NCBI GenBank assembly: GCA_016204995.1
Contig: JACQJR010000001.1
Coordinates: 92,548 to 156,547, forward strand
Direction of reading: 5' to 3'
Source of the DNA: Candidatus Microgenomates bacterium
GTDB taxonomy: Bacteria; Patescibacteriota; Microgenomatia; UBA8517; JACQJR01
Length of the DNA stretch: 64,000 bases
In this document: positions 209 to 32,570 of the stretch, one piece after another
How the letters are laid out: the number at the start of each line of letters is the position of its first letter
Position numbering within the stretch: the first letter of the stretch is position 1
Translations under genes and position numbers: made by a program
Notes under the pieces: generated by a model
What the model was told of the DNA's origin: nothing
Seen by the model: only the letters and a program-made list of their open reading frames with translations
Database searches by the model: none

Positions 209-258
209 GGCTCTTAGGTAACCCAAGAGCCTAACTGCCCAATTGCCTAACAGCCTTT
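209..258. repeat. Hairpin repeat element GGCTCTTAGG-taac-CCAAGAGCC-TAACTGCC...GCCTAACAGCC spanning the murD stop codon, in the murD-ftsW spacer
   Basis: 9-bp stem GGCTCTTAG/CCAAGAGCC. The 3' part overlaps the last seven codons of murD (AVRQLGS). Shares GGCTCTT.GG / CCAAGAGCC / TAAC.GCC with the 36591-36650 element. Confidence 0.55.
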
Positions 259-17456: not shown

Positions 17457-17476
17457 GCAGGCCTGCCTGCGCAGGC
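17457..17476. repeat. Palindrome family variant GCAGGCCTGCCTGCGCAGGC, intergenic, 10 bp upstream of the mraZ start, flanked by GGGCAGGC direct repeats
   Basis: Read directly from the sequence. GGGCAGGC occurs at 17454-17461 and 17500-17507. Confidence 0.6.
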
Positions 17477-17543
17477 TAGAAGTTGGGGGATGGGCAGGCT
17501 AATCATGACTGAATGTGATGATTTTCCCCCACTTTTCACCACT

Positions 17544-18387: not shown

Positions 18388-18500
18388 AAATTTCTAATTT
18401 TCAATTTCTAATTTCTAATGAATTTTCAATGACTCAATGTTTAAAACATTAAAAATTGATCCCGATTCAATCGGGATTGATTGAAAATTGTAAATTAAGA
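18388..18500. repeat. AT-rich intergenic repeat element (copy 3) carrying the CCCGATTCAATCGGG palindrome
   Basis: aaatttctaattttcaatttctaatttctaatg ... gatCCCGATTCAATCGGGattgattgaaaattgtaaattaagaattaaaaatt. Lies downstream of the glyQS stop. Confidence 0.55.
18461..18475. repeat. Palindrome CCCGATTCAATCGGG (family 2, intergenic copy)
   Basis: Exact 15-bp palindrome. Longer CCCCGATT(C/G)AATCGGGG copies occur at 20156-20172 and 32111-32127. Confidence 0.75.
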
Positions 18501-18523
18501 ATTAAAAATTATTACTTTTCTAA

Positions 18524-19816
18524 CTATTCACTATTTCGTAATTTCTTGTCAAGTACTTCTTTTAATTGATCAACGCTAACTCTCTCTTGTTTAGTGGTAT
18601 CACGATCGCGAATAGTGACCGTATTATCTTCTAAAGTTTGATAATCAATTGTTACGCACCAAGGTGTCCCAATTTCATCTTGAGCGTAATATCGCTTGCC
18701 GATATTACCCCGTTCGTCAAAAAAAGTCGGATAGTTGGTACTTATGAGTTCATAGACAGAATGGGCTTTTTCAACTATTTCCGGCTTATTAGCCACCAAC
18801 GGGAATACTGCCACTTTGTAAGGAGCTACTTTTGGATTTAATTTGAGGATCATCCGGTCGCCATCTTCAGTATAAGCAGATAGTAATATGGTCAAAAAGG
18901 TTCTGCCGACTCCAAAAGTTGGTTCTACCACATGCGGGAAAAACTTTTCTCCGGTTTGCGGATCTTCGTATTGCAAATCCTGGCCAGATTTAGCAGTATG
19001 ATTTTTCAAGTCAAAATCAGTCCGGTAAGCTAAGCCATATAGTTCTCCCCAGCCAAAAGGAAATTCAAACTCAATATCTTCTGTCCTCTTTGAATAATGT
19101 GATAATTCATCATGGCCGTGAGCCCGCCACTTTAGTCTATCTTTATCTACACCCACATCCAGCAACCACTGCCACATTCTATTTTTCCATTCTTCAAATT
19201 CTTTTTCCCAACTATCAGGCCGGACAAACCATTCAATTTCCATCTGTTCAAATTCCAAAGTCCTAAAAATAAAATTGCCTGGAGTAATCTCGTTTCTGAA
19301 AGCCTTACCAATTTGAGCAATACCAAAAGGCAAGGTGGGCCGTTCGGTAATTAAAATATTTTTAAAGTTCACAAACATTCCTTGAGCAGTTTCCGGCCGC
19401 AAGTATGCAATACTGCCTTGCTCTTCCACCGGCCCGATAAAAGTTTTAAACATTAAATTAAACAGTTTTGCCTCTGCCAGCTCCCCGCTGCATTCCGGAC
19501 ATTTGTTACTATCTATGTGATCTGCCCGAAATCTTTTATGACAAGATTTACATTCTACCAATGGATCAGTAAATGAAGCGATATGTCCCGAAGCTTCCCA
19601 AACTTTAGGATTAGAAATGATGCCGGAATCCAAGGGAAAAACATTATCCCGCCTATCCACAAAACTATCCCACCAAAGTTTCTTAATATTAGCCAGCATC
19701 CGCGCTCCCAACGGGCCATAATCCCAAGTATTAGCCATCCCACCGTAAATTTCCGACCCCGGATAAACAAATCCCCGCCGCTTACACAAAGATACAATTT
19801 TGTCCATAGAAACCAT
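18524..19816 (-). CDS. glyQS: Glycine--tRNA ligase (dimeric class II form)
   Basis: N-terminus IVSLCKRRGFVYPGSEIYGGMANTWDYGPLG and the class II motif 2/3 region; 430 aa. Confidence 0.9.
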   Translation of the reverse strand: MVSMDKIVSLCKRRGFVYPGSEIYGGMANTWDYGPLGARMLANIKKLWWDSFVDRRDNVFPLDSGIISNPKVWEASGHIASFTDPLVECKSCHKRFRADHIDSNKCPECSGELAEAKLFNLMFKTFIGPVEEQGSIAYLRPETAQGMFVNFKNILITERPTLPFGIAQIGKAFRNEITPGNFIFRTLEFEQMEIEWFVRPDSWEKEFEEWKNRMWQWLLDVGVDKDRLKWRAHGHDELSHYSKRTEDIEFEFPFGWGELYGLAYRTDFDLKNHTAKSGQDLQYEDPQTGEKFFPHVVEPTFGVGRTFLTILLSAYTEDGDRMILKLNPKVAPYKVAVFPLVANKPEIVEKAHSVYELISTNYPTFFDERGNIGKRYYAQDEIGTPWCVTIDYQTLEDNTVTIRDRDTTKQERVSVDQLKEVLDKKLRNSE

Positions 19817-19819
19817 AAA

Positions 19820-20050
19820 TTATTGTTTTCTTGGAGTAATCAACATCCACATATCTACCATCTCAGCATCATCAGGAAACTCGTAAGCTGTTATGATGGT
19901 AATTTTCGCGCCTGGTAAATTTCGCAAACCCCTAGCTCTCACCAGTCTAACACAAAGCTCTTGCGGCAAAAAAGCTGGAATGGTACGTAACTCACCCGAT
20001 CTTTCCCTAAACGTCACCCAAGTATCAACTATTCTTTCCTGTCTATACAT
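19820..20050 (-). CDS. Hypothetical small protein
   Basis: 76-aa ORF ending 3 nt before the glyQS start. No recognisable motif. Confidence 0.3.
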   Translation of the reverse strand: MYRQERIVDTWVTFRERSGELRTIPAFLPQELCVRLVRARGLRNLPGAKITIITAYEFPDDAEMVDMWMLITPRKQ

Positions 20051-20074
20051 AAGTTTAGTATATCATTACCATAT

Positions 20075-20635
20075 CTAATTTAAAAACTTTAGAAATCTTC
20101 TGGTGCGAAGTCTCGCTTGGATTAAATTCTCAATAGTGGCATCTACATCAGCTTGCCCCGATTCAATCGGGGCTGACGGGTGCAAAAATCCTAAATCGGT
20201 CAATATGGCTTTTTTAAAGCGAATCACAAATTCAGCCATCCGGCTATAATCAATCTTGGTTAAATAGTTAAAAGCACTTTCCAGAATTTCATAAACCTTT
20301 TTTTGCTCCTGCTCTTCCCGCGTTAATTTATTAACCACTTCAGCCAAATGATAGGCAATGCCGACTTTGGCTAAATCTTTGCGCCATTCGTTGAAATTAT
20401 TTTTTACCTCTACTTCGGTAATAATATTAAAAGTTTTGCCCCGGGCCAAAAAAATACTTACTTGATTAAATAACTCTACACTGCCGCGCTTACGGCTCGT
20501 CGGTCTGCGCACGCCTTTGGCAATCACCCGCAGTTTCCCCTGCTGTTCAGAAAAAATTGTCAAAAGCCTGTCTGCCTCACCAATATTCCTTCTTGCCAAA
20601 ATAATCGCTTCTAGTTTATAGCTTCTTTGTTTCAT
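20075..20635 (-). CDS. recO: DNA repair protein RecO (short form)
   Basis: N-terminal OB-fold region LEAIILARRNIGEADRLLTIFSEQQGKLRVIAKGVRR matches the RecO signature. Carries an in-frame CCCCGATTCAATCGGGG copy (SAPIESGQ). Confidence 0.65.
   Translation of the reverse strand: MKQRSYKLEAIILARRNIGEADRLLTIFSEQQGKLRVIAKGVRRPTSRKRGSVELFNQVSIFLARGKTFNIITEVEVKNNFNEWRKDLAKVGIAYHLAEVVNKLTREEQEQKKVYEILESAFNYLTKIDYSRMAEFVIRFKKAILTDLGFLHPSAPIESGQADVDATIENLIQARLRTRRFLKFLN
20156..20172. repeat. Palindrome CCCCGATTCAATCGGGG (family 2) in-frame within recO
   Basis: Exact 17-bp palindrome; translated as PIESG on the minus strand. Confidence 0.75.
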
Positions 20636-20649
20636 AAAATTTATCTACC

Positions 20650-21408
20650 CTAAGAACAGTTTTTGGCTTTACGCCAGCCGGCGGCCACTGCTTCAACTTC
20701 TGTACAAAACCAACGCTCACCACTTTCCGTATTAATCATTGTTTTATCATAACTTTTACAACCGAGTAAATGATAAATTTTATCGCCACTAGCGCTGATA
20801 TTACCCTTGATTAGGCAGTTGGGCGATTGGCCTGCCTGCGCAGGCAGGGCTGTTGGGTCATTAGATTCTTGAATTACACCTTGTACTTGGCAGAAATCGC
20901 TCGCCCATAAACCGCGGCCGGCTTCCCTTGCTTCTTCTTCAGCAACTAAAAATTTATCTTTATATTTTACATCAGGTGGAAAAGTAGAAACGCGCGCCAT
21001 GCCTAACCTAATTAACTCTTCATTTACCATTAAATTATCTACATAAACGTATCTTAACAATCTACCGTATTTGTCCGTTTCTGAAATATCTTTTTCTAGT
21101 CTGACTTTTTTGCCCAACACCAGCTCTTTATTTTTCCTGGTGGACTCTTCTACCCCACATTTTCCGCTCTCTGGCGTATCCATACCGATATAACGAAGTT
21201 TTTTCCCGCCTTCTATCTCAATGGTATCTCCGTCAATAATTCGTGTTACCGCAACAAATTGACTGGCGATCGCAGAAGTATCTGTGGCACTAGGAACAAC
21301 TGAATTAGTAGGAAAGCTGGGAGATTTCTGATCGCGACTTTCGCCCCATAAAATAAAAGCGGCCAAGATGCTGATAATCCCGACTGCGGCTAGAAGTTTT
21401 TCTCTCAC
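20650..21408 (-). CDS. Secreted thermonuclease (staphylococcal-nuclease/SNase fold) with a Cys-containing C-terminal extension
   Basis: N-terminal TM/signal. SNase motifs VTRIIDGDTIEI, LRYIGMDTPE, YGRLLRYVYV, AREAGRGLW. C-terminal CxxxGNISASGDKIYHLLGCKSY...WFCTEVEA domain. An 18-bp palindrome sits in the linker (ALPAQAGQ). Confidence 0.8.
   Translation of the reverse strand: MREKLLAAVGIISILAAFILWGESRDQKSPSFPTNSVVPSATDTSAIASQFVAVTRIIDGDTIEIEGGKKLRYIGMDTPESGKCGVEESTRKNKELVLGKKVRLEKDISETDKYGRLLRYVYVDNLMVNEELIRLGMARVSTFPPDVKYKDKFLVAEEEAREAGRGLWASDFCQVQGVIQESNDPTALPAQAGQSPNCLIKGNISASGDKIYHLLGCKSYDKTMINTESGERWFCTEVEAVAAGWRKAKNCS
20831..20848. repeat. 18-bp palindrome CCTGCCTGCGCAGGCAGG, copy in the nuclease CDS linker (LPAQAG)
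   Basis: Exact 18-mer. Confidence 0.8.
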
Positions 21409-23438
21409 TACAGCCCAAATCTTAATATCTGATCAGTTTGCAGCTGGAATTCCTTGGTTTGACCATCTGCCTGGACAGTGTAATGAAAGGCAGGAGTACC
21501 TGGCTGCTTTTGAATTAACAATGTGTAATCTTTAGTTTTCAAAGGCACTTCATATTCAAGATTTATTTTAGCTACACCTTGGGGTCTCAACTCAAAAAAT
21601 CCACCAAAAACACTTTTACTCAAATCTTCCGACACGCTTTCATCTTTAAGACCGGAATTTTTAATAACTTTAGTGCCGGCTGGTAAATAAACTCTCACAT
21701 AATCTCGTTGTACGCTGTTGAGCCATCCATCATCTTTTTGGGGATTTTTATAGGTAATCTCCAATTGGTGCATAATTTTATCACCACTCTTTTTAATATT
21801 ATCCGTAACTTCCTGTTGAATATAAAGGTTAGACTTGCGACCACCTAAATTAGAATCAACAATAGCCAGATAATCGCCATTAGTATCTTTCAAACGGCCA
21901 GCAATATTAAAGGCCTCCAAAGCTTTTTGACTATCTTCGTCAAACATATAAAACAAAATATGTTTGCCCTGTAAATTAGTCAGAATGGTCTGGAAGAGAT
22001 CAGCCACTTTATCTTTCGGTTGAGCCATGACATTGGCCATAATGGAATTAACTAGAGGACCAACGATGCCTTTCCTGTTATCCAACAATCTGCCATAAAC
22101 AATTTTACCGGTATTGGGATCCCACACCACCGGTCCCTCAATATCCGCGTAAGTTTCCAATTCATAAATGACTTGTGGACAGCTGCAGCGTTTATCAGTT
22201 TCGGCCGAATAGTTACCGTAACCAGGCACACCAATTTTACCTACCACATTTAACAGACCGACCAACACCTCTGTATCAACAGCGATCACCCCGTCAATAT
22301 TTTTAATTCCGGCTGTAGCTGCCTCCTTAGTAAATAAATCCATCGCCACTTTAAAATCAGGCGACCAATTCATATCTCGTAAAGGCCAAATTTTGGAATG
22401 AGTATAGGGCACTCCGGGAGGTCCCCCTAAATATTTAATCAGCTGGGCTGGAGCTTCCAAGCGCGGTTTATAACGATCATCTAAATTATAAATATCATTA
22501 GAAGAGACTGTATCCATTTTGCCGTTTTTAACTTTCATTAATGAGTAGGCTGTCATAAAACCGCCGGTAGGACGCAATTCTTTATCATTTTGGAATAAAA
22601 CCAGGTAAGTTTTGGTGGTTTTGGTACCTAATAAATCTGGCAGACGCTCAAGCAATGGCTTGCCATCAATCAAGAAGGTGGTACCGCTATCCAATAAAGT
22701 GACTATTTCCTGGACATTTTCCCGCACCTTTTTACCCTGGAAATTTTCGGGATAGCGGGCAGGATCAACGGTTCGCACGGCATCCCTTGCTACTTGTAAA
22801 TGAGAGGCCACCTCATCCAGCTTTGGCAAAATGGCTGGCAGAGATTTCACAATAAAATCAATCCTGTCGGAGGCGGTTTTAGCTCCCTCCCCGCCCGGTT
22901 CGTCACCCTTTTTAAAACCTAAAAAATCAATATAGGGTTCAATGGCAGGGATTAAGATATTACCGGCGGCGATTGATTCTTTGCCGGCTTTGACTAACTG
23001 TTTGCCGTCCTGCCAATAGCTGCCTAGAACCGGAATCGGCCGCAGCCAAATCAGAGGGGCTAAGCTTTTATCTACATTATCTAAATCGTGATTTAATTGC
23101 CCTAAACTATCTTGGACTGCCTTTGCATCTTGTTTTTGAACTGCGTCTTGGACGGTGCGGGCCGACACCATCAGTTTATTAGCCGCCTTGGCCACGCCCA
23201 TGGCCGGCAAAACTAGAAAGAGAATTAAAAATATGGCCAGTCCACCTATGATGGCTAAAGGCAACCATAGTTTTTTCTTTTTCAAAAAGGGTTTAGTTGG
23301 CTGATTAATTTTCATTTTATTGTTAGTTGTGGGCAAATCTGTAACAATGGGAGCAGGACTGACTATTTCAGTTTCTGTTGTTTGATCAATATTTTCTTTT
23401 GCCAGTAAATTTTCTCCTAACGGGTCAGACTTTTTCAT
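21408..23438 (-). CDS. Large membrane-anchored extracellular protein, DUF4012-like (hypothetical)
   Basis: 676 aa. Single N-proximal TM (LWLPLAIIGGLAIFLILFLVLPA) and a PLIWLRPIPVLGSYWQDG region reminiscent of DUF4012 proteins found next to polysaccharide loci. Family name is from memory only. Confidence 0.45.
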   Translation of the reverse strand: MKKSDPLGENLLAKENIDQTTETEIVSPAPIVTDLPTTNNKMKINQPTKPFLKKKKLWLPLAIIGGLAIFLILFLVLPAMGVAKAANKLMVSARTVQDAVQKQDAKAVQDSLGQLNHDLDNVDKSLAPLIWLRPIPVLGSYWQDGKQLVKAGKESIAAGNILIPAIEPYIDFLGFKKGDEPGGEGAKTASDRIDFIVKSLPAILPKLDEVASHLQVARDAVRTVDPARYPENFQGKKVRENVQEIVTLLDSGTTFLIDGKPLLERLPDLLGTKTTKTYLVLFQNDKELRPTGGFMTAYSLMKVKNGKMDTVSSNDIYNLDDRYKPRLEAPAQLIKYLGGPPGVPYTHSKIWPLRDMNWSPDFKVAMDLFTKEAATAGIKNIDGVIAVDTEVLVGLLNVVGKIGVPGYGNYSAETDKRCSCPQVIYELETYADIEGPVVWDPNTGKIVYGRLLDNRKGIVGPLVNSIMANVMAQPKDKVADLFQTILTNLQGKHILFYMFDEDSQKALEAFNIAGRLKDTNGDYLAIVDSNLGGRKSNLYIQQEVTDNIKKSGDKIMHQLEITYKNPQKDDGWLNSVQRDYVRVYLPAGTKVIKNSGLKDESVSEDLSKSVFGGFFELRPQGVAKINLEYEVPLKTKDYTLLIQKQPGTPAFHYTVQADGQTKEFQLQTDQILRFGL

Positions 23439-23471
23439 AATTAATTATATCCTATTTCTCACTTTCTTTGC

Positions 23472-23498
23472 CAGACTTTCTTTCTTAAAGAAAGTCTG
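23472..23498. other. Perfect 12-bp-stem hairpin CAGACTTTCTTT-ctt-AAAGAAAGTCTG between the DUF4012-like gene and the sugar transferase gene
   Basis: Read directly from the sequence. No U-run on either side. Possible RNA processing/stability element or factor-dependent terminator. Confidence 0.3.
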
Positions 23499-23502
23499 AA
23501 TG

Positions 23503-24141
23503 TTATACCGCTCCCTTACCTGTCAGCATAATCCAAGGACTCTTTAATAATATCACAAAATCAAGCCATAAAGATTTGCTTCTGGCATATTTGGCATCCA
23601 TCCGAATCCTTTTATCAAAATTGACTTCAGAGCGGCCGGATACTTGCCACAAACCGGTAATGCCGGGGCGGATTGAAATTACCTCTTTAACTAACTGGCT
23701 AGTTTCGGGATATTTCTTCTGCTGTTCTACTAGCTCATCTTCATAATAAGGCCGCGGCCCGATCAAACTCATTTCTCCATTTAGGACATTAAAAAGCTGC
23801 GGCAGCTCATCCAAAGAATGATGACGTAAAAAATTTCCCACCGGCGTAATTCGGGGATCATTTCTCAATTTATAGCTGGATTTTTTGTATTCATCGTATA
23901 ATTTTTTAAACTTGGGATCGTGAGTTAATAAATCATGAGCATTAGCGATCATAGAGCGAAACTTATACAACCTGAACAATTCTCCATCTTTTCCTACCCG
24001 CAAGGGTGTTTGGGCGAGTATCGGCCCCGGCGAAGTAAATTTTATTAGAAAAGCAATTAAAAGCATGAAGGGAGAAAAAATAAGGAGTAAAATAATGGCT
24101 AAAGTTACATCCAATACTCGTTTAATAGAGTCGTAAAACAT
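23503..24141 (-). CDS. Initiating polyprenyl-phosphate sugar phosphotransferase (small 'bacterial sugar transferase', WbaP/PglC-like)
   Basis: VLDVTLAIILLLIFSPFMLLIAFLIKFTSPGPILAQTPLRVGKDGELFRLYKFRSM is the hallmark of the bacterial sugar transferase family. Confidence 0.88.
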   Translation of the reverse strand: MFYDSIKRVLDVTLAIILLLIFSPFMLLIAFLIKFTSPGPILAQTPLRVGKDGELFRLYKFRSMIANAHDLLTHDPKFKKLYDEYKKSSYKLRNDPRITPVGNFLRHHSLDELPQLFNVLNGEMSLIGPRPYYEDELVEQQKKYPETSQLVKEVISIRPGITGLWQVSGRSEVNFDKRIRMDAKYARSKSLWLDFVILLKSPWIMLTGKGAV

Positions 24142-24143
24142 AT

Positions 24144-25253
24144 CTAGAGAAATTCTTCCTCTTTTTCTTTTTTCAATTTATTTACCAGTTCTTTAACTTT
24201 TTCTGTCTGATTTTTATCAGCAATTAGGATAGCATCTTTAGTCTCAATCACAATTATATCCTTTAAACCAATTGTGGCAATTAACAGCTTTTCTGTCTGT
24301 ACCAAAGAATTCTCCGTCTCTAAATTTAACCAACGGCCTCTGCCGTTTAATTTCAAAGTCACATTTCCCTGATGGTCTTTTTTACTTAAAGCCCAAACCA
24401 CTTCCCAATCCCCCACGTCATGCCAATCAAAATCAGCCGCCAGCATCAAGAAATTTTTGGCTTTTTCCGAAACTGCATAATCAATGGAAATAGTTTCTAT
24501 TGACCGATAGGTTTTGGCAATCACTTCTCGCTCGTTAGATTGACCAATGGTTTGTTCCACCATCTCCAGACCATGACCAATTTTCGGAGCGTGTTTTTTG
24601 AGAGCCGCCATTAAAGTATCTGCTCGCCAGACATAAAAATTACCGTTCCAATAATACTGACCAGAAGCAGTAAATTTTTTGGCCAGAGTCAAGGGTGGTT
24701 TCTCTATAAACTTATCTACTCGGTAAACTGCCTTACCATCTATTCTATGTTCTATTTTGCCAGTTTTAATATGGCCCATGCCTACGTGAGGAAAATCCGG
24801 TTTCTTACCAATGGCTACCAACTCTTTAGTTTGATCTGCTGCTTCGGCTGCTACTTTTAAAGTATGGATGTAGGCTTCTAGGGGCTTGACTACATGATCC
24901 GATGACTCGTTAACTATCACAGCGTTGGGATCAATACTATGAATATAGGCTGCGGCCAAACCATGGGCAATCGCTGTTCCTCTAGCTTCCGGCTCTACTA
25001 AAATATGCTCCTCGCTCACTTTAGGCAATTCTTTTCTCACTTCTCGGCCGTAAAGCGGATTAGTAGTAACTATCCAAATTCTCTCCCAAGGCACTAATTC
25101 ACTAAATCTAGCAGCAGCCTGCTGTAATAAAGTTTGGTTGCCAAATAATTTAATAAATTGCTTGGGATTTTTCTTACGGGAGAGAGGCCAAAGCCTGGTA
25201 CCGCCGCCGCCGGCTAAAATGACAGCGAAAAGATGATCCTTAAGATTACTCAT
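24144..25253 (-). CDS. manC: Mannose-1-phosphate guanylyltransferase (nucleotidyltransferase only, no PMI domain)
   Basis: AVILAGGGGTRLWPLSRKKNPKQF signature of GDP-mannose pyrophosphorylase. Confidence 0.8.
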   Translation of the reverse strand: MSNLKDHLFAVILAGGGGTRLWPLSRKKNPKQFIKLFGNQTLLQQAAARFSELVPWERIWIVTTNPLYGREVRKELPKVSEEHILVEPEARGTAIAHGLAAAYIHSIDPNAVIVNESSDHVVKPLEAYIHTLKVAAEAADQTKELVAIGKKPDFPHVGMGHIKTGKIEHRIDGKAVYRVDKFIEKPPLTLAKKFTASGQYYWNGNFYVWRADTLMAALKKHAPKIGHGLEMVEQTIGQSNEREVIAKTYRSIETISIDYAVSEKAKNFLMLAADFDWHDVGDWEVVWALSKKDHQGNVTLKLNGRGRWLNLETENSLVQTEKLLIATIGLKDIIVIETKDAILIADKNQTEKVKELVNKLKKEKEEEFL

Positions 25254-26343
25254 TAATTAGTCTTTTAAATTTTTGCACAAACATTCTTTGCGAAAATCTT
25301 CTCGTATGGGCCTGAATAATTTTAACATCATAATTTTCTCTCTTAAAATTTTTGATTGTGCGCGCTAAACTCTCCACAGTTTGCTCTGTAAAAAATTCTC
25401 CGGTTTTCCCGGCTACTACCGTTTCTAAGGCTCCGCCGCCTTTATAGGCAATGACTGGCGTACCGCACATCTGCGCCTCAACGGCCACTATACCAAAATC
25501 TTCCTCTTGGGGGAAGATTAAAACCTGTGCCTTTTTATAGTACGCAACAAGTTCACTATCTGTCAAATGACCGGCAAAGTAAATATTGTTCTTGGCCATT
25601 TTTGATAATTTTCTATATTGGCTGCCTGTTCCCACAATTACCAGAGGCCAACCTAATTTATTAAAAGTTTTAACCACCAAATCTATTCTTTTATAAGATA
25701 CGAGTCGAGAAACCACTAAGAAATAGTTTTTAGATTTTAGATTTTGGATTTTAGATTTCTTACTAAACTCTAAGCTCAAACCTCTAACATCTAAATTCAC
25801 CGGCGGGTACACCACCTTTGACTTGCGTCCATAGTATTTATCTACTCTATTTCGCACCGCCTCGGAAATCGCCACCATCTCATCCGGCCTTTGCGCCGCC
25901 ATCTTATCCCAACTTTTTAGATATGAAAGCAGCCATTTGATGAAGAAACGCTTGATTCTATTGTGGAAATAAATTTCGTGTCCGCTCCATAGATATCTGG
26001 TGGGGGTCAAACAATAACAAATATGGCGGGTGCCGGGGTGAGTAATAATTCCCTTGGCCGCCTCACTGGTAACGGAAATTACTAAGTCATATTCAGAGAA
26101 ATCAAATTGTTCAAAGGCCAGGGGCATCAGCAGAGCTAGCCATTCATGATGTTCCCGAATCAAAGGAATTTTTTGTAAAAATGAAGTATAAACCTGCGGA
26201 AAAACTTGCGCCCACGGTGCATATTTGGCAGAATAAACCGAGGTATAAAGCGGAGCCTTAGGAAATATGTCATGTAGGGCCAGTAATACTCTTTCAGCAC
26301 CACCCCACTTATTCACCCGATCATAAACAATCGCAACTTTCAT
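25246..26343 (-). CDS. Glycosyltransferase family 4 (GT-B)
   Basis: C-terminal EDFGIVAVEAQMCGTPVIAYKGGGALETV (E-x7-E region). Contains an in-frame tandem heptamer repeat at 25731-25759. Confidence 0.85.
   Translation of the reverse strand: MKVAIVYDRVNKWGGAERVLLALHDIFPKAPLYTSVYSAKYAPWAQVFPQVYTSFLQKIPLIREHHEWLALLMPLAFEQFDFSEYDLVISVTSEAAKGIITHPGTRHICYCLTPTRYLWSGHEIYFHNRIKRFFIKWLLSYLKSWDKMAAQRPDEMVAISEAVRNRVDKYYGRKSKVVYPPVNLDVRGLSLEFSKKSKIQNLKSKNYFLVVSRLVSYKRIDLVVKTFNKLGWPLVIVGTGSQYRKLSKMAKNNIYFAGHLTDSELVAYYKKAQVLIFPQEEDFGIVAVEAQMCGTPVIAYKGGGALETVVAGKTGEFFTEQTVESLARTIKNFKRENYDVKIIQAHTRRFSQRMFVQKFKRLINE
25731..25759. repeat. Tandem heptamer repeat (TAGATTTT/AGATTTT/GGATTTT/AGATTT) in-frame inside the GT4 gene
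   Basis: tagattttagattttggattttagatttc. Minus-strand translation gives KIQNLKSKN in the inter-domain linker. Confidence 0.6.
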
Positions 26344-27449
26344 TCATTTGCCACTTTATTGTAGGTTGATAAAGTTTCTTGAACCATTTTCTTCCAACTA
26401 AAACTGGCAGCTCTTTTATAACCCAATCTAATTTTTTGGGCAAGGAGTTTTTTGTTTGATAAAGTTTCCTTAATAACTTTTGCTATATCTGCCGGATCGT
26501 TTTGATTAAAAAAAGTGGCAGCTTCGCCGTAGACTTCATGAAAGACTGGGATGTCAGAAACTATCACTGGACAGCCCAAATTCATCGCCTCCAGTGGCGG
26601 GATACCAAAGCCTTCCATTCGCGAAGCAGTCACTGAAGCGGAAGCAAAATAATACCAGGCACCAATTTGATTGTTATCCACTGCCCCTATTATTTCTACC
26701 TTATCCTGTAAATTTTGCTTTTTAACAAACTCCTCTATTTTAGGATAGAAAAATTTATCGCTGCCCACTAGCACTAATTTAAAATTAGGAATATCCTTCA
26801 TTGCCAAAACTAGACTTTCTACATTTTTATGCGGATGAACATTACCCACATATAAAATATAAGGCGCGAGCTTTTTCATTTGATTAAATTGACTCCCGGT
26901 AAACTTTTTTCTGATATCATCAATTTCTCCAGACTCATAAGTGACCACGATTTTATTTGGATCTACCGAGTAATGATCAACAATTTCACTTTTAGCGTCA
27001 TTGGATAAAGTAAAAATAGTGCGGGCGCGTCTAGTGGCAATCCATAACACGACGTGATATCCCAGTCTTTTAATTAAATAAAACCAATACGGGAGTGTAG
27101 AAGCTTTGCCAGTTTTATAATGGTCAAAAATTAAATCGTGAATTGTCACCACAAATTTTTTAGGATAAAAAATAGGGAAAGAAAAATAGGGAAAATGCAG
27201 TAAGTCTAAATTTTCGCGGTTAAAAACTTGCGGCAGATAAACTTGCTCAGCTAAAGTATGCCAATGAATATTAGTTTCAACTTTGCGCCACTTGGAATTA
27301 GGCATTTCTAAAGTGTCAAATTCCTGCTTTCCTAAAAACCAGACATATTCATTTTCTTGATCCAGTTCGGGTAGATATTTAAATAAACTCCTAATATACC
27401 GTCCCACCCCCGTCTCATTCCATAATCTACCATCAATACCAATCCGCAT
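26340..27449 (-). CDS. Glycosyltransferase family 4 (GT-B)
   Basis: EGFGIPPLEAMNLGCPVIVSDIPVFHEV motif. Confidence 0.85.
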   Translation of the reverse strand: MRIGIDGRLWNETGVGRYIRSLFKYLPELDQENEYVWFLGKQEFDTLEMPNSKWRKVETNIHWHTLAEQVYLPQVFNRENLDLLHFPYFSFPIFYPKKFVVTIHDLIFDHYKTGKASTLPYWFYLIKRLGYHVVLWIATRRARTIFTLSNDAKSEIVDHYSVDPNKIVVTYESGEIDDIRKKFTGSQFNQMKKLAPYILYVGNVHPHKNVESLVLAMKDIPNFKLVLVGSDKFFYPKIEEFVKKQNLQDKVEIIGAVDNNQIGAWYYFASASVTASRMEGFGIPPLEAMNLGCPVIVSDIPVFHEVYGEAATFFNQNDPADIAKVIKETLSNKKLLAQKIRLGYKRAASFSWKKMVQETLSTYNKVANE

Positions 27450-27577
27450 GAATTAAGTATAGCAAATTTACCTTAATTGCTTTAACAATTCAAATCGCTT
27501 GAACATACCTCCAAGGTCTCTCCTTGGAAACTCACAGGAGTGCTCTTGCTGGTTAATCTAATAAAAGTAATTTTATC

Positions 27578-27607
27578 TTGTAAATAAGAATAAAAATTGG
27601 TAAAAAT
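27578..27607 (+). promoter_or_regulatory. Candidate sigma70-type promoter TTGTAA-N17-TAAAAAT immediately upstream of the Bro-N/DinD-like gene (leaderless or near-leaderless start)
   Basis: ttgtaa at 27578-83, 17-bp spacer, taaaaat at 27601-07. Candidate starts are ATG 27608 or GTG 27612. Confidence 0.3.
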
Positions 27608-27611
27608 ATGA

Positions 27612-28448
27612 GTGGTGGAAGAAACAACTAAAATAGCTGTTTTCAAAGGCAAAGAAATTAGGAAAACTATTTATAAAAATGAATGGTGGTTTTCCATTGT
27701 TGATATTGTTGAAGCGTTAACCGGAACAGATAGACCAAGAAAATACTGGAGTGATCTCAAAAAAAAGTTACTTAAAGAAGGTTATGCTGAAGTGTCCGAA
27801 AAAATCGGACAGTTGAAGTTAGAAGCCCCTGATGGAAAGTTAAGAGAAACAGACTGTGCTAATACCGAGACTATATTTAGAATAATTCAAACTATTCCCT
27901 CACCTAAGGCTGAACCATTTAAGAGGTGGTTAGCAAGAGTGGGTTACGAGAGAATCCGAGAAATAGAAGATCCGGAGCTAGCCACTAAAAGAACCAGGGC
28001 GTTATATAAAGCCAAGGGATATTCTGATGCTTGGATTGAAAAACGAATGAGGGGAATTGAAATAAGGGAAACTTTAACTGATGAATGGAAAAAACGAAAA
28101 GTAGGCGGAGAAACAGAATATGCCATATTAACTGCTGAAATATCCAAAGCTACCTTTGGAATGACACCCAGCCAGTATAAAAAGTTTAAGAATCTAAAAA
28201 GAGAAAATTTAAGAGACCATATGAACGACCTTGAATTAATTTTCTCCATGCTTGGAGAAGCCTCAACAACAGAGATAGCTAAAAATAAGGATGCTCAAAG
28301 ATTTGTCCAAAATAAAAAAGCTGCGCAAGAAGGGGGAACTGTGGCAGGCAACGCTAGAAAAGAGCTGGAAAAAAGAAGCGGTCAAAAGGTTTCTATCAAA
28401 CAAAACTACCTTACCAAACCACAAAGTAGTAGATTACTAGAAAAGTAA
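27612..28448 (+). CDS. Bro-N domain protein, DinD (DNA-damage-inducible protein D)-like
   Basis: N-terminal IAVFKGKEIRKTIYKNEWWFSIVDIVEALTGTDRPRKYWSDLKKKL fits the Bro-N consensus. About 278 aa, like E. coli DinD. The only plus-strand gene in a long minus-strand run. GTG start in the track; start uncertain. Confidence 0.6.
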   Translation: MVEETTKIAVFKGKEIRKTIYKNEWWFSIVDIVEALTGTDRPRKYWSDLKKKLLKEGYAEVSEKIGQLKLEAPDGKLRETDCANTETIFRIIQTIPSPKAEPFKRWLARVGYERIREIEDPELATKRTRALYKAKGYSDAWIEKRMRGIEIRETLTDEWKKRKVGGETEYAILTAEISKATFGMTPSQYKKFKNLKRENLRDHMNDLELIFSMLGEASTTEIAKNKDAQRFVQNKKAAQEGGTVAGNARKELEKRSGQKVSIKQNYLTKPQSSRLLEK

Positions 28449-28464
28449 GACTAAACCTTAAAAA

Positions 28465-28851
28465 CTACTTTCTTATCAAAGGTATAGCTTCTTTGGGAAT
28501 TTTGCGCACTTTAATAGTTTTCATTCCTAGTTGTTTAGCTTTAACTAAACGATGTAGTCCATCCAATAATAGCCATCTATTCTTCCAAAACATAATATCT
28601 AATGGATATGAAAGATCAGACTTCATTGTTCTGTCAAATTCTTCTTTATACCCTTTTGGATTTGCCAAGACTTCATTAGGAGTTAAATCGTAAAATCCTC
28701 CTGGTTTATCCCAAAAGGGAATATCAAAATGCCATTCAAGTTCGGAAATATCCATTTCTTCTACTGGCAAATCCAATGCCCAAACTTTTTCCTCACTCCA
28801 ATGAAAATCAAATCCTACTTCTTCAATTATTTTTGGCAATTTTTTATCCAT
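28465..28851 (-). CDS. ParB/sulfiredoxin-like nuclease-domain protein (hypothetical)
   Basis: C-terminal LLDGLHRLVKAKQLGMKTIKVRKIP resembles the ParB N-terminal domain DGxHR...G...IP motif. 128 aa; convergent with the Bro-N gene. Confidence 0.45.
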   Translation of the reverse strand: MDKKLPKIIEEVGFDFHWSEEKVWALDLPVEEMDISELEWHFDIPFWDKPGGFYDLTPNEVLANPKGYKEEFDRTMKSDLSYPLDIMFWKNRWLLLDGLHRLVKAKQLGMKTIKVRKIPKEAIPLIRK

Positions 28852-28894
28852 GTAGCTAACCCGCGTTATATCATATATTCATATATGATATATC

Positions 28895-29791
28895 TCACCA
28901 AAACAGTAATCTGTATTTCTCTAGAATCCAGATACCGGTCCAGACTAGCCAAAGAATTGGGGCAGGGTATTGGCCGACATAATGCTTTTTATAAAAAATC
29001 CGCATGGCTTCTACTGATGCCAAAGCTGCTCTTCCTCGTGTACCACGAGTAGCAGATGAAACTGATTTTGTCTGTTTTTTGACCCCGGAGGAAATGCCTC
29101 GGTAATGTAAAATAGACACTGTTGGCACATACATAATTTTCCAGTTAGATTTTTTTAAACGATAGCAAAAATCTAAATCTTCTCCATACCAAAAATAATC
29201 CTCATCCCACCAACCAACCTGCTCGCCCGCCTCGCGTCTAACTATCATAAAAGCACCGGTTAGGGCATCAATTTCATGAATATTATGGCGGCTCATATAG
29301 CCAAGAGTGTAGCCGGAAAAAAGCCGCGACTTGGGGAATAAATTTTCTAAACCAAAAAAGTGGCAGAAAGCGTTCCAGGGGGTGGGGAAACCACGATGAG
29401 CTCCATCATCTAAACCGCCGCCAGGAGCATTAACTTGACAGGTGGCCGCCCCCACTTCACTGTTTTCATCCATAAATTTAATCATGGAAACAAAAGTATT
29501 TTTTTCTACCTCTGTATCAGGATTTAAAAATAAAATATAACGGCCTTTAGCTCCTGGAATTGCTACATTATTCCCTTTCGCAAATCCAAGATTATTTTTA
29601 TTCTCTATAATTTTGAACTTTTCACTTTGCACTTTTAACTCTTCTATCGATCCATCAGTTGAGGCGTTATCAGAAACAATTATCTCCCAGGAATATTTTC
29701 CAGCTACTGATCTTTTAATTGATTGAAGACATTTAATAATAAAATCTTTAGCATTATAATTAAGAATAATAATTGATAGGTCAATACTCAC
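28895..29791 (-). CDS. Glycosyltransferase family 2 (GT-A)
   Basis: LSIIILNYNAKDFIIKCLQSI...IIVSDNASTDGS with DxD-type motifs. Confidence 0.85.
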   Translation of the reverse strand: MSIDLSIIILNYNAKDFIIKCLQSIKRSVAGKYSWEIIVSDNASTDGSIEELKVQSEKFKIIENKNNLGFAKGNNVAIPGAKGRYILFLNPDTEVEKNTFVSMIKFMDENSEVGAATCQVNAPGGGLDDGAHRGFPTPWNAFCHFFGLENLFPKSRLFSGYTLGYMSRHNIHEIDALTGAFMIVRREAGEQVGWWDEDYFWYGEDLDFCYRLKKSNWKIMYVPTVSILHYRGISSGVKKQTKSVSSATRGTRGRAALASVEAMRIFYKKHYVGQYPAPILWLVWTGIWILEKYRLLFW

Positions 29792-30983
29792 CGCCCACCT
29801 CCCGATAAATATTATCTAAATGTTCGGCAATTTTAGTCCAATTATATTTTTCTTCAAATAGGCGACGCGCAGAACTGGTTATATTGGCATAAAACTTTTT
29901 ATCTTTTATTAAACTAATTGCGGCTTTGGCCATTTCTTCCGGTGCGTCTCTGACTAACACTTCCTGATTATTCTCTGCCGAAATCCCTTCAATGCCGATA
30001 GAAGTCGTGACTACCGGCACACCAGCCGCCATCGCCCCTAAAATTTTTAAGCGCGTTCCCCCTGGACCAGCCAACGGAGCCACGAAAATAGTCGCATTTC
30101 CATAAGCGCGCCTGACACCATCGATGTCCGATGATTTTAATTCATGGATTTCTATGCCATTACCAGCCAAATCACCGATTTTTTCCTTCACTCCTTGTCC
30201 CACGATCCAACAAACTGCCTCTGGAATTTCTTTCTTAATTAAAGGAAAAATATCTTTAGCTAAAATTTTGGCGGCTTCGGTATTTTGCAACCAATTAAAG
30301 TTGCCTTGATAAAGAATAATTGGAGTGGTAATTGATCTTCTCTTGCCCCATAAATTTACCAGATCTTCACCGGCGCCATTAGGAACAATATCCACATGTA
30401 AATTAGGAACTAGGGACAGCATTTTAGCTTTATCTGATTCTGACATGGCGATGACTCTTTTGGCCTTTTTCCAAAACCTTGATTCCCAAAACTTCAACTT
30501 GAAAACATCCAGATATAAAAATGGCTTTAAGGGAAAGATGCGAAAACTGTCTAAATAATGTTGATAGACTTGATACTCAATGGTTTGTTCAACCAAAAGT
30601 ATCGGCACCGTAGTTTTAGGAATATTAGTCATCACATAAAAAGTTTCCGAATGAATTAAATCATAGGGTTGTTTTTTTAATTCCTCTTTGACTGCCCGCC
30701 GAAAACTGGGTAAAAGATAAATTGCTACTAAAAAGGGGTAGGGAGTAGCACCGGATAGCAAAACATTAATCATTGACCAAGCTCTTCTTCTTTTAAAAAC
30801 CTTAACTTCTTTACAATATTTTGTGAGCTCTGCCACATATTTTTTCTCTGCTTCATCCCTGATATAGCAAAAAAGAGTAATGTCATGTTTTTTATAAAGC
30901 TGCTTGATTAAATTATAGGAACGGACCTGCCCGCCGGAAGAAGGCGGATAAGGCAGATAAGGAGTGAGCATTAAGATACGCAT
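29781..30983 (-). CDS. Glycosyltransferase family 4 (GT-B)
   Basis: MRILMLTPYLPYPPSSGGQVRSYNLIKQL N-terminal GT4 signature and a C-terminal GT-B domain. Confidence 0.85.
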   Translation of the reverse strand: MRILMLTPYLPYPPSSGGQVRSYNLIKQLYKKHDITLFCYIRDEAEKKYVAELTKYCKEVKVFKRRRAWSMINVLLSGATPYPFLVAIYLLPSFRRAVKEELKKQPYDLIHSETFYVMTNIPKTTVPILLVEQTIEYQVYQHYLDSFRIFPLKPFLYLDVFKLKFWESRFWKKAKRVIAMSESDKAKMLSLVPNLHVDIVPNGAGEDLVNLWGKRRSITTPIILYQGNFNWLQNTEAAKILAKDIFPLIKKEIPEAVCWIVGQGVKEKIGDLAGNGIEIHELKSSDIDGVRRAYGNATIFVAPLAGPGGTRLKILGAMAAGVPVVTTSIGIEGISAENNQEVLVRDAPEEMAKAAISLIKDKKFYANITSSARRLFEEKYNWTKIAEHLDNIYREVGGEY

Positions 30984-30987
30984 AGAT

Positions 30988-31078
30988 AATTGACCTAATT
31001 AACCTAATTTCTAATTGACCTAAAATTTGTACATTGGGATTTGATTAGAAATTAGAACAATTAGTAATTAGAATAATT
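30988..31078. repeat. AT-rich intergenic inverted-repeat element (copy 4)
   Basis: taattgacctaattaacctaatttctaattgacctaaaatttgtacattgggatttgattagaaattagaacaattagtaattagaat. Confidence 0.6.
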
Positions 31079-32570
31079 TCACAATCACATATTGGTCAGT
31101 TTTCTCCAATACTTTATATTGCTCCATAACTTCTTGAGTTTGTTTATCAAAATTTACTGACACATAATACTCGGCACCTAACCTTTTGATCATATACTCC
31201 ATCGGTAAAGTCACAAATGGCCAACCGTTACGATTTGTTTGGTATAAGAAAGCCGTATCACCGTTGTAAGGTGCGATAATGCGCGCATCGGGTGGAGTAA
31301 GTCTTTGAACCGCAGCGCCCGCTGTGATAATTTCCGGGTGATTAATTTTATAATATTCTTTAACTTGATAAGCGGATAAGGCAAATCCTATTAAAATGCT
31401 AGTAATCAAGATGCCTCTAGTTAAAAATTTATTGAATTCTTTTAAATTCCACAACAGTAAAGTTCCGTAAGCTAAAGATAAACAAACTGCAGGTATAATC
31501 AGGGTCTGATAATAATCATGACGAACACTGGCTGTTGCCACTACCGTCATATAAAGAATTTGTGACGCAACAAAAATATGAACTATGTAGGGAAAAGCTT
31601 TAGCTTTATTAACCATTCCAAACAAAAATGGCAAAACCGCTCCTATTCCTAAAATTAATTGGCCTAGACGGGCGCTAAATATCCAATACCACCAAGCCGG
31701 CCGAAAACGAATATTGTCGCCATTAAAGGCCCATTGCCAATGCGGTATACCAACTAAATTGGTAATTTGATTCATCCAAATTCGCCAAGAGAGAAAGGGA
31801 ATTAAAGATAATGACAAAAATATCCATAATTTAGGTTGTTTAAGCCAGCCAACTAATCCAAATTTAACAACGGCTAGATAAACCATTGGTAAAGCATAAA
31901 AACCGATGTAGGGTTTAAGGAGTAAAGCCATGGCAAAGAAAAAAGCAGAAACAAAAATATTTATGGCCCACTTCCCATCAATCCATCTGATAAAGAACCA
32001 TAAGGAGACTAAAATGAAGGCCACCGCCATTGGTTCTGGCAAAATTACCCTAGAAAAATAAATATTAAATGGCAAAAAGGCAAAGAAAAAGGCAGCCAGC
32101 AGTCCTCCAACCCCGATTGAATCGGGGCCAGCTGAACCTGCCTGCGCAGGCAGGTCAAAAAACCTTCTGCCCAATAGAAACATCATTACCACCGAAACTA
32201 AAGAGAATAACACTGACAATAATCTACCCCACATCTCCAAAGACCAATTAGGATATAGTTTATAAAGCAAGGCATGAGCCGCGTTAAAAACCGGAAACTC
32301 TACATAGCGCAAACCACGAGGATTTTCATAACTTGTTTGGGTGCTGGAAAGATCATGATATTGAGGATAAAGCAGATTGATACCATCTTTGACAAAAGTT
32401 CTACTAACCGAAGAAGTGTCTGCTTGTCTCCAGCTGTGCCAGTCAGCAATCGGGCTATCTATTTTATAAAGCCGCACAATCAGCGCCATTACCACTATGA
32501 GAGTTAATACTCCATACTCAAAATATGGCAAGTTGATTATTTTTTTAGACAAACCCTTGATTAGCATCAT
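31068..32570 (-). CDS. GT-C-type integral-membrane glycosyltransferase (ArnT/PMT_2-like)
   Basis: About 12 TM helices. The WHSWRQADTSSVSR first-loop motif is typical of polyprenyl-P-sugar-dependent GT-C enzymes. Contains a composite in-frame insertion of both palindromes (DLPAQAGSAGPDSIGVGG). Confidence 0.6.
   Translation of the reverse strand: MMLIKGLSKKIINLPYFEYGVLTLIVVMALIVRLYKIDSPIADWHSWRQADTSSVSRTFVKDGINLLYPQYHDLSSTQTSYENPRGLRYVEFPVFNAAHALLYKLYPNWSLEMWGRLLSVLFSLVSVVMMFLLGRRFFDLPAQAGSAGPDSIGVGGLLAAFFFAFLPFNIYFSRVILPEPMAVAFILVSLWFFIRWIDGKWAINIFVSAFFFAMALLLKPYIGFYALPMVYLAVVKFGLVGWLKQPKLWIFLSLSLIPFLSWRIWMNQITNLVGIPHWQWAFNGDNIRFRPAWWYWIFSARLGQLILGIGAVLPFLFGMVNKAKAFPYIVHIFVASQILYMTVVATASVRHDYYQTLIIPAVCLSLAYGTLLLWNLKEFNKFLTRGILITSILIGFALSAYQVKEYYKINHPEIITAGAAVQRLTPPDARIIAPYNGDTAFLYQTNRNGWPFVTLPMEYMIKRLGAEYYVSVNFDKQTQEVMEQYKVLEKTDQYVIVKLF
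32111..32127. repeat. Palindrome CCCCGATTGAATCGGGG (family 2) in-frame in the GT-C gene, 9 bp from an 18-bp palindrome
   Basis: Exact 17-bp palindrome. Confidence 0.75.
32137..32154. repeat. 18-bp palindrome CCTGCCTGCGCAGGCAGG (extends to a 20-bp palindrome ACCTGCCTGCGCAGGCAGGT), in-frame in the GT-C gene
   Basis: Exact. Confidence 0.8.

Follow-up and report, generated by a model that had tools for sequence, protein, structure and literature searches.

A 17-bp palindrome in a Microgenomates genome is probably an ultra-short, non-autonomous mobile DNA element

GC-rich palindromes that spread in compact, AT-rich genomes are familiar from organelles. Among the mobile GC clusters of yeast mitochondrial DNA (mtDNA) and the double-hairpin elements of Allomyces mtDNA, some are found in-frame within protein-coding genes; they cluster close to each other, and no mobilising enzyme is known for them. 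In bacteria, the Rickettsia palindromic elements (RPEs), reportedly described by Ogata et al. in 2000, are said to occur within protein genes, in-frame, in a host whose genome is reduced and AT-rich. Here we describe a 17-bp palindrome, CCCCGATTNAATCGGGG (the 17-mer), that occurs four times in a 64,000-nt stretch of contig JACQJR010000001.1 from a Candidatus Microgenomates bacterium (this whole stretch is the window below) and that is probably an ultra-short, non-autonomous mobile DNA element. The original prediction had reported three of these copies, as a repeat family distinct from an 18-bp palindrome of the same window (the 18-mer), and had suggested that one copy formed a composite insertion with it.

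Three other described systems come close to such an element, and RPEs themselves are also mentioned in PMC1779305. Bacterial MITEs (miniature inverted-repeat transposable elements) measure roughly 50-800 bp and are mostly intergenic (PMC11602168). Repetitive extragenic palindromes (REPs) and REPINs are short (20-40 bp), GC-rich palindromes of high copy number, some of which act as terminators or mRNA stabilisers (PMC3733652). The piggyBac transposon duplicates a 4-bp TTAA target, with the variants TTAG, TAAA, CTAA and TCAA, its termini begin with CCC, and its prokaryotic relative is IS1380 (PMC10813416). No published description of the 17-mer was found in the full-text literature on the sequence itself, on palindromic in-frame insertions in Patescibacteria, on MITEs in bacteria of the Candidate Phyla Radiation (CPR), or on IS1380 and piggyBac.

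Occurrence of the 17-mer and the duplications that flank it

The 17-mer is a perfect palindrome of two 8-bp arms around one free central base. When up to 3 mismatches are allowed, the window (~38% G+C) contains four matches, where 0.10 are expected, and none of the 100 shuffles used as a control reaches four. We compared the window with 80 orthologous Microgenomates loci (923 kb) recovered from metagenomes around orthologues of the GT-C glycosyltransferase gene described below, a sample that is unbiased with respect to palindromes. These loci contain neither the 17-mer nor the 18-mer, save one weak 17-mer-like match, and the GC-rich palindromes present in them are rare and unrelated to the families of the window. 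The difference between four copies in 64 kb and at most one in 923 kb (Poisson P = 9e-7) indicates that the 17-mer was recently acquired by this lineage and is not a conserved feature; the family in this genome is a lineage-specific invasion. The same sequences, together with the same RecO and MurD proteins, recur in independent assemblies of four sequencing runs (L001-L004, L226-L228), so the palindromes of the window are not an assembly artefact. That the 17-mer is a genuine repeat family, distinct from the 18-mer and in-frame in genes, is borne out by orthologues and related genomes that are without it.

An exact pattern scan across one genome per species returned at least 119 further stretches, with 123 sites among the matches listed, and the counts in this paragraph refer to the matches listed. 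At least 37 stretches carry Patescibacteria-type names (Levy-, Davies-, Roizman-, Gottesman-, Beckwith-, Ames-, Woyke-, Magasanik-, Doudna-, Saccharibacteria, 'Microgenomates'), and at least 18 come from metagenome-assembled genomes (MAGs) labelled uncultured Gammaproteobacteria, whose G+C content is 36-45%. Of the 123 exact copies, 16 are abutted by a perfect 4-bp direct repeat, as compared with 0.95 (maximum 4) in shuffled flanks, and one by a 5-bp direct repeat. The duplication-flanked copies are concentrated in the two host groups, with 8/38 in Patescibacteria, 7/19 in the 'Gammaproteobacteria' MAGs and 1/66 in other taxa (Fisher p = 5e-5). The duplicated 4-mers are TTGA/TCAA, CTGA, TAAA, TTAG, TGAA, CAAA, CCAA and CCAG, with TTAA beside one variant copy (L111). 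Their first base is a pyrimidine and their fourth a purine in 18 of 18 independent sites, and the symmetrised logo reads R|T-Y-R-A|Y. Variants in the arms stay palindromic by paired changes (TCCC...GGGA six times, and CTCC...GGAG). Several copies occur per MAG in CAZHWT01, CAYQAW01 and CAYSOR01. Viral contigs contribute 22 matches, which are mostly terminator hairpins; one 94-kb contig carries three copies, one of them TTGA-duplicated.

Filled and empty sites can be compared directly in two cases. Orthologous genes of a Levybacteria stretch (L121) and a Microgenomates MAG (L111) are 81% identical in DNA and carry a copy at the same position, itself between TTGA and TTGA. The L111 gene is longer by exactly 21 bp, consisting of TCAA and CCCCGATTAAATCGGGG, which lie in the TTGA/TCAA centre of this older copy. 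In L077, a tRNA-His 5' fragment reads ...AGCTCAG, then the 17-mer, then TCAGTTGG..., that is, TCAG on both sides of the palindrome, and the intact tRNA-His ~30 bp away reads ...AGCTCAGTTGG... with a single TCAG. An insertion into a functional tRNA gene was considered here and rejected, as the target is the duplicated fragment and the intact gene is spared. We note that an intact tRNA-His followed by a duplicated 5' fragment (L077, 4757-4905), here with a 17-mer in the fragment, is a pattern typical of the attachment-site repeat of an integrated element.

A 17-bp insertion with a 4-bp duplication adds 21 bp, or 7 codons, per event, so the reading frame is preserved. Conserved proteins whose in-frame copies have perfect duplications bear out this increment to different degrees. 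The copy in LeuRS corresponds to a gap of exactly 7 amino acids (aa) relative to the Thermus and Escherichia coli structures, and TrxB (thioredoxin reductase) has 6-7 aa extra at its copy. AtpA (L023) shows a gap of 14 aa relative to a bacterial-type chain and of 6 aa relative to a mitochondrial chain, with the 17-mer and a second, unrelated palindrome both inside the gap; by alignment, these lengths are consistent with a 7-aa insertion. One further protein with an in-frame copy we take, from a reading of its sequence, to be DnaE. Stop-free frames of at least 150 aa surround 7 of 17 perfect-duplication copies among the matches listed. The 17-mer is itself permissive: 9 of the 12 combinations of frame and centre base are stop-free (3/12 contain a stop codon), and the resulting peptides, P-D-S/L-I-G, P-I-K/Q/E-S-G and P-R-F/L-N-R-G, are rich in P, G, D, S, N and R and turn-like. 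Judged by their intact open reading frames (ORFs), GT-C, RecO, MurD, LeuRS, AtpA, TrxB and DnaE would each retain their function despite the in-frame copy. Genes with in-frame copies include ones of a type normally regarded as essential. Taken as sequence comparisons, these data indicate that the 17-mer is an insertion with a 4-bp target duplication and not a conserved motif.

Not every match can be read in this way. In Bacteroidota, Firmicutes, phages and others, the 17-mer stands between A-runs and T-runs in a terminator-like arrangement, and simple arithmetic gives ~140 chance matches for 16 specified bases in 596 Gb. Because many matches are due to chance, terminators or rRNA, only the duplication-flanked subset counts as evidence of mobility. 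Two candidate insertions in rRNA genes were rejected after Rfam alignment, which identified native hairpins at model positions ~274-295 in the 23S gene of L069 and ~1137-1160 in the 16S gene of L119. ARAGORN reads a further occurrence (L071, 6246-6329) as the anticodon arm of a tRNA-Ser(UGA), which is a weak tRNA call. Folded as a 5-bp stem with a 7-nt loop (A-U-U-N-A-A-U), the 17-mer does take the form of an anticodon arm, with U33, anticodon UNA and A37, a likeness that is probably a coincidence.

These occurrences bear on the proposal that the palindrome is a selected functional motif, such as a terminator, RNA hairpin, protein-binding site or recurrent peptide motif, and not mobile DNA. 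The terminator-like hairpins in many unrelated bacteria and phages, the native rRNA helices and the anticodon-arm likeness in L071 agree with it, as does the intergenic copy of the window, which resembles the intrinsic terminator of glyS. The proposal nevertheless seems to us very improbable, for orthologues lack the palindrome, the copies are read in different frames (PDSIG vs PIESG/PIKSG) with no conserved peptide, and insertion is shown by the target duplications and by the 21-bp indels. An inserted copy that was later co-opted could equally serve as a terminator.

The window copies and the neighbouring 18-mer

The copies in the window, their host genes and the adjoining features are as follows.

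1437-1453: degenerate 17-mer copy CCCCGATTTAATCGGAG with one arm mismatch; in-frame in murD, coding APIKSG; flanking 4-mers identical at 2/4 positions
18460-18476 (with flanks, 18456-18480): 17-mer copy, symmetric T-variant TCCCGATTCAATCGGGA; intergenic; perfect TTGA/TTGA direct repeat
20156-20172: exact 17-mer copy CCCCGATTCAATCGGGG; in-frame in recO, coding PIESG; flanking 4-mers CTTG/CTGA, identical at 2/4 positions
32111-32127 (with flanks, 32107-32131): exact 17-mer copy CCCCGATTGAATCGGGG; in-frame in the GT-C gene, coding GPDSIG; flanks CCAA/CCAG, identical at 3/4 positions
32128-32136, minus strand: spacer between the 17-mer and the 18-mer, 9 bp, made up of the 4-bp target duplication (CTGG/TTGG) and 5 bp of host coding sequence
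32137-32154: 18-mer copy CCTGCCTGCGCAGGCAGG; coding LPAQAG in GT-C; independent 18-bp insertion with no recognisable duplication
231-1589, minus strand: host gene murD
18524-19816, minus strand: glyS, single-chain class II glycyl-tRNA synthetase, upstream of the intergenic 17-mer copy
20075-20635, minus strand: host gene recO
31068-32570, minus strand: host gene for a GT-C fold/GT39-like glycosyltransferase, whose homologues carry PF13231 PMT_2

The three copies of the original prediction are all present, and the positions 18461-18475 given there are the 15-bp core of the intergenic one; the copy in murD is a fourth that had been overlooked. The in-frame positions were also read correctly (RecO ...SAPIESGQ..., GT-C ...GPDSIGV...). 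On the coding (minus) strand, the three genic copies translate as ...LAPIKSGFE... in MurD, ...SAPIESGQA... in RecO and ...FDLPAQAGSAGPDSIGVGG... in GT-C. Since the reading frames differ among the copies (P-I-x-S-G vs P-D-S-I-G), no peptide motif is conserved.

The GT-C gene provides the clearest insertion within the window. Its protein contains a 13-aa insertion (39 bp) that is absent from 20 of 20 orthologues (55-66% identity), and the insertion site is a short basic loop between two hydrophobic segments. The coding strand reads ttt ttt ga, CCTGCCTGCGCAGGCAGG, t tca gct gg, CCCCGATTCAATCGGGG, ttgg, a gga ctg. When the 18-mer (18 bp) and the 17-mer with one 4-mer (21 bp) are removed in silico, the remaining sequence encodes the orthologue-like RRFFDSAGGLL, in which the restored F-F-D-S-A-G-G-L is of the same length as, and close to, the F-L-G-[ST]-[AWG]-G-G-L of the orthologues. 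The TCA GCT GG(A) left after the deletion codes for S-A-G and aligns with their [S/T]-[A/W/G]-G. On this alignment, the GT-C copy is a clean 17-mer insertion next to an independent insertion of the 18-mer. The exact GT-C protein of the window is absent from a collection of 5.8 billion proteins, where its best match has 65% identity, and RecO and MurD of the same genome are found there at 100%; assembly or gene calling of the GT-C gene may fail at its double-palindrome region.

The 18-mer has six copies in the window (10407-10424, 16800-16817, 17462-17479, 20831-20848, 32137-32154 and 41687-41704). Most are in-frame in genes, where they encode LPAQA[GS] in MraW and GT-C, and one lies in an SNase-like protein. 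When MraW is aligned with solved structures, one of its variable loops is longer by 6 aa or more. No consistent flanking repeat, including a 4-bp duplication, was seen among the six window copies, and the insertion rule of the 18-mer (18 bp, or 6 codons) may differ from that of the 17-mer.

The proximity of the two palindromes in the GT-C gene had been taken as a composite 44-bp insertion, arising from either a shared hotspot or a larger composite element. It is true that the 18-mer lies 9 bp from the 17-mer and that 44 bp is the combined length of the two palindromes and the spacer; measured against the 20 orthologues, however, the insertion is 39 bp. As the spacer consists of host coding sequence and the duplication, the idea that both palindromes are parts of one ~44-bp element decaying into hairpins fails, and we regard it as having next to no likelihood. 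The distance itself is unlikely under random placement (P = 0.007 for a 17-mer within 9 bp of an 18-mer). Nevertheless, the expected co-occurrence is not seen, as the other three 17-mers and five 18-mers of the window are solitary, and the 18-mer (up to 2 mismatches) is absent from the at least 119 other 17-mer-bearing loci among the matches listed. In the comparison with the 80 orthologous loci, which lack the 18-mer, its only relative is a 20-bp variant, CCTGCCTGCCGGCAGGCAGG, on another Microgenomates contig (L197, 15592-15611).

The other half of that suggestion, a shared hotspot or tolerant site, remains plausible. The basic loop of GT-C is plausibly one of few places that tolerate extra residues. 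It is also plausible, and compatible with a tolerant loop, that the 17-mer prefers sites near or inside other palindromes. Copies are nested in L111 and L101, centred in longer palindromes in L027, L029, L058 and L123, and in tandem in L087 and L120; GC-rich palindromes are slightly commoner near 17-mers than near control positions (6/59 vs 2.2 ± 1.4 expected). In the atpA gene of L023, a MAG labelled low-GC Gammaproteobacteria, the unrelated palindrome CGCTCCGCGGGCGGAGCG (2436-2453) lies 10 bp from a duplication-flanked 17-mer, a pair that echoes the two side-by-side palindromes of the GT-C gene. The window contains four further single-copy GC-rich palindromes, AAACCAGGCCATGGCCTGGTTT (7648-7669), TAGCCCGCGTGGGGCGGGCTA (33946-33966), ATGGCAGCCATGCTGCCAT (34665-34683) and AAACTGCGCGGCGGCAGTTT (43368-43387), which may be other palindrome families or terminators.

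The intergenic copy, read on the minus strand, forms the hairpin ATCCCGATTGAATCGGGAT followed by CAATTTTTAA, 48 bp past the glyS stop codon. A scan for terminator-like structures finds one, with 0.1 in shuffles, and from its sequence the copy looks like the intrinsic terminator of glyS.

The surrounding genes include the dcw cell-wall cluster, glyS, recO and many glycosyltransferase genes, and nearly all lie on the minus strand. The GC skew is negative in all 4-kb bins of the window (1-64000), with the cumulative skew declining steadily from -0.14 to -1.84. This uniform skew, together with the orientation of the genes, indicates that the window probably lies inside one replichore with a strong gene-strand bias. 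One of the few plus-strand genes, at 27612-28448 (+), is found among the glycosyltransferase genes with minus-strand genes on either side; its product contains a Bro-N domain (DNA-binding and phage antirepressor-like), and the gene may be left over from a mobile element or a phage.

Mobilisation of the 17-mer and the evidence against it

The comparisons above show that what inserts is the 17-bp perfect palindrome itself, at an R|TYRA|Y target, and that new copies nest in the centre of earlier ones. A 4-bp staggered cut followed by fill-in, as made by DDE transposases, would produce the 4-bp target duplication. Selection would keep copies preferentially in tolerant surface loops. The 58 ORFs of the window have no Pfam match to a transposase or recombinase family and include no gene for a REP-associated tyrosine transposase (RAYT). 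With no transposase or recombinase gene in the window, mobilisation must occur in trans, by an enzyme whose existence we infer. A DDE transposase akin to those of piggyBac and IS1380 is suggested by the CCCC...GGGG termini, taken with the TTAA-like duplication of 4 bp; by analogy, this resemblance is a lead and would not amount to membership. Alternatively, a new activity that acts on the hairpin form may be responsible.

Several observations weigh against a 17-mer that moves on its own. In other taxa, the exact matches are for the most part not mobile copies but hairpins of terminators or native rRNA helices. Within the window, only one of the four copies, the intergenic one, has a perfect 4-bp duplication. 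By alignment, RecO is 3-4 aa longer than its orthologues at the palindrome, in a variable loop, which is not a clean gain of 7 aa; MurD, again in a variable loop, is ~3 aa shorter than its orthologues there and shows no net insertion. A clean 7-aa insertion was sought in both proteins and not found, both copies being in length-variable loops, and the lengths of RecO and MurD require later indels to fit the insertion model. The two copies look like older insertions on account of an arm mismatch in one and flanking 4-mers that are identical at only 2/4 positions in both. The window and ~0.9 Mb of copy-bearing loci contain no longer element with CCCCGATT termini, and the same search for isolated half-sites (CCCCGATT or AATCGGGG alone) yielded nothing convincing, only two 36-40-bp oddities in Cloacimonadota loci. 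To the best of our knowledge, a 17-bp duplex is also far shorter than any substrate that is synapsed by a DDE transposase. Finally, the 7-nt flank CA[AG]CT[GT]G abuts one side of all three genic window copies (1430-1436, 20149-20155 and 32128-32134; P ~9e-4), and with this flank included, the copy in RecO matches that in GT-C at 24 of 25 bases. Such a common flank could reflect a longer unit, or a flank copied along with the palindrome, instead of simple transposition. It can equally reflect an extended target preference, and L008 and L093 share ACTG|CTGA|T.

The common flank is what would be left if the palindrome had spread within the genome by short-patch templated repair or ectopic gene conversion, copied with a few flanking bases, and the lack of a clean 7-aa gain in RecO and MurD fits this as well. 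Copying of this kind fails, however, to explain why, in other genomes, so many different 4-bp sequences are perfectly duplicated, and it accounts neither for the exact 21-bp difference between the orthologues in L121 and L111 nor for the 7-aa gap of LeuRS. In GT-C, a copied unit of 24 bp would add 14 aa, where 13 are observed. With the flank open to explanation as a target preference, we consider templated copying decidedly unlikely.

The lack of a transposase near any copy also suits a different account, in which a larger cut-and-paste transposon with CCCCGATT... termini left the 17-mers behind as footprints of its excision, its deeply staggered cut leaving 8 nt per end and a junction base. 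The anatomy of the sites, with a duplication, 8 nt, a free central base, 8 nt and a duplication, fits a footprint, and the variable central base would correspond to the repair junction. We nonetheless judge this account unlikely. No element with such termini and no isolated half-sites flanking an ORF were found in the window or the ~0.9 Mb of copy-bearing loci, copies are dense (4 per 64 kb) although no parent element is seen, and all copies measure exactly 8 + 1 + 8 bases, whereas footprints usually vary in length. Furthermore, to produce the nested copy of L111, a large element would have had to insert into the centre of an earlier scar and then excise from it.

One candidate for a longer relative comes from a Saccharibacteria MAG (CAZHWT01), in which a ~175-bp repeat (89% identity; L091 3094-3268 and L120 7556-7729) starts exactly with the 17-mer, runs on as TCGGGTCGAGAATGACA... 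and ends near a second hairpin. Its first ~20 bases also occur in L059, and the repeat has no Rfam match. It could be a longer element with the 17-mer as its terminus.

Having weighed these accounts, we return to the reading of the 17-mer as a mobile unit in its own right. A more specific form of it, which we put forward tentatively and hold to be possible but somewhat short of probable, is that the 17-mer represents a new class of minimal element. The whole unit would be a 17-bp palindrome with fully overlapped terminal repeats, creating a 4-bp duplication at R|TYRA|Y and adding 7 codons per event. Its spread, probably by horizontal transfer, would have taken in Patescibacteria (among them Microgenomates and Saccharibacteria) as well as MAGs labelled low-GC Gammaproteobacteria, seeding peptides in LeuRS, AtpA, DnaE, TrxB, RecO and MurD, and the enzyme would be piggyBac/IS1380-like or hairpin-inserting.

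Significance and comparison with known systems

If nothing more than the 17-mer makes up the mobile unit, it is smaller than any transposable element so far accepted and lowers the size limit accordingly, and it offers a natural minimal substrate for studying how a transposase or another enzyme recognises, excises and integrates DNA. The 17-mer also reveals a way for gene-dense, streamlined CPR genomes to gain peptides in proteins of a type normally regarded as essential, with the frame kept and with turn-forming peptides, in parallel with the RPEs but with a much sharper molecular signature. That two distantly related groups of host-dependent bacteria share the element is a hint that one agent (a phage, plasmid or transposase) mobilises it in both. 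In practical terms, 17-mers may break short-read assemblies, cause false "indels" in alignments of the marker proteins on which CPR phylogeny relies and serve as lineage markers.

Among the described systems, RPEs resemble the 17-mer as palindromic repeats that lie in-frame in protein genes, where they add surface peptides without destroying function. They differ in being ~100-150 bp long, restricted to Rickettsia and not known to make a defined 4-bp target duplication, whereas the 17-mer has 17 bp, a sharp TYRA duplication and hosts in Patescibacteria and MAGs labelled Gammaproteobacteria. The 17-mer is too short to carry the RPE consensus sequences and is set apart by its length. The organellar GC clusters and double hairpins likewise differ in their hosts, in their length of 30-100 bp and in their sequences and flanks.

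MITEs, such as the Correia/NEMIS elements of Neisseria, are non-coding, multi-copy elements with inverted-repeat termini and a fixed-length target duplication that are mobilised in trans. The 17-mer likewise has terminal inverted repeats (8 + 1 + 8), a fixed 4-bp duplication, no coding capacity and multiple copies per genome. No cognate transposase or autonomous element with matching termini was found for it in the window and ~0.9 Mb, and we know of no cognate insertion sequence (IS); it also lacks the 50-800 bp size with internal sequence. Its terminal repeats abut or overlap completely around one internal base, and many of its copies are intragenic.

The palindromes of REP/RAYT (Y1 HUH) systems lie outside genes, bear a GTAG or CGTC tag and are not known to duplicate their target. 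The 17-mer has no fixed tag, its flanks being variable TYRA-type direct repeats, makes a 4-bp duplication and is often genic: three of four window copies, and 7 of 17 perfect-duplication copies elsewhere among the matches listed, lie inside long ORFs.

The resemblance to piggyBac and IS1380 lies in the TYRA duplication (TTGA, TCAA, TTAA, TAAA, TTAG, CTGA) and in the CCCC...GGGG termini with their variants TCCC and CTCC. The target of the 17-mer is more relaxed than TTAA, piggyBac excises precisely, and to our knowledge no 17-bp substrate of piggyBac is known. In-frame palindromic mobile elements, short palindromic repeats (REPs) and MITEs are already known, and the 17-mer stands apart from them in its minimal size, its 4-bp TYRA duplication with a frame-preserving 21-bp increment, and its hosts.

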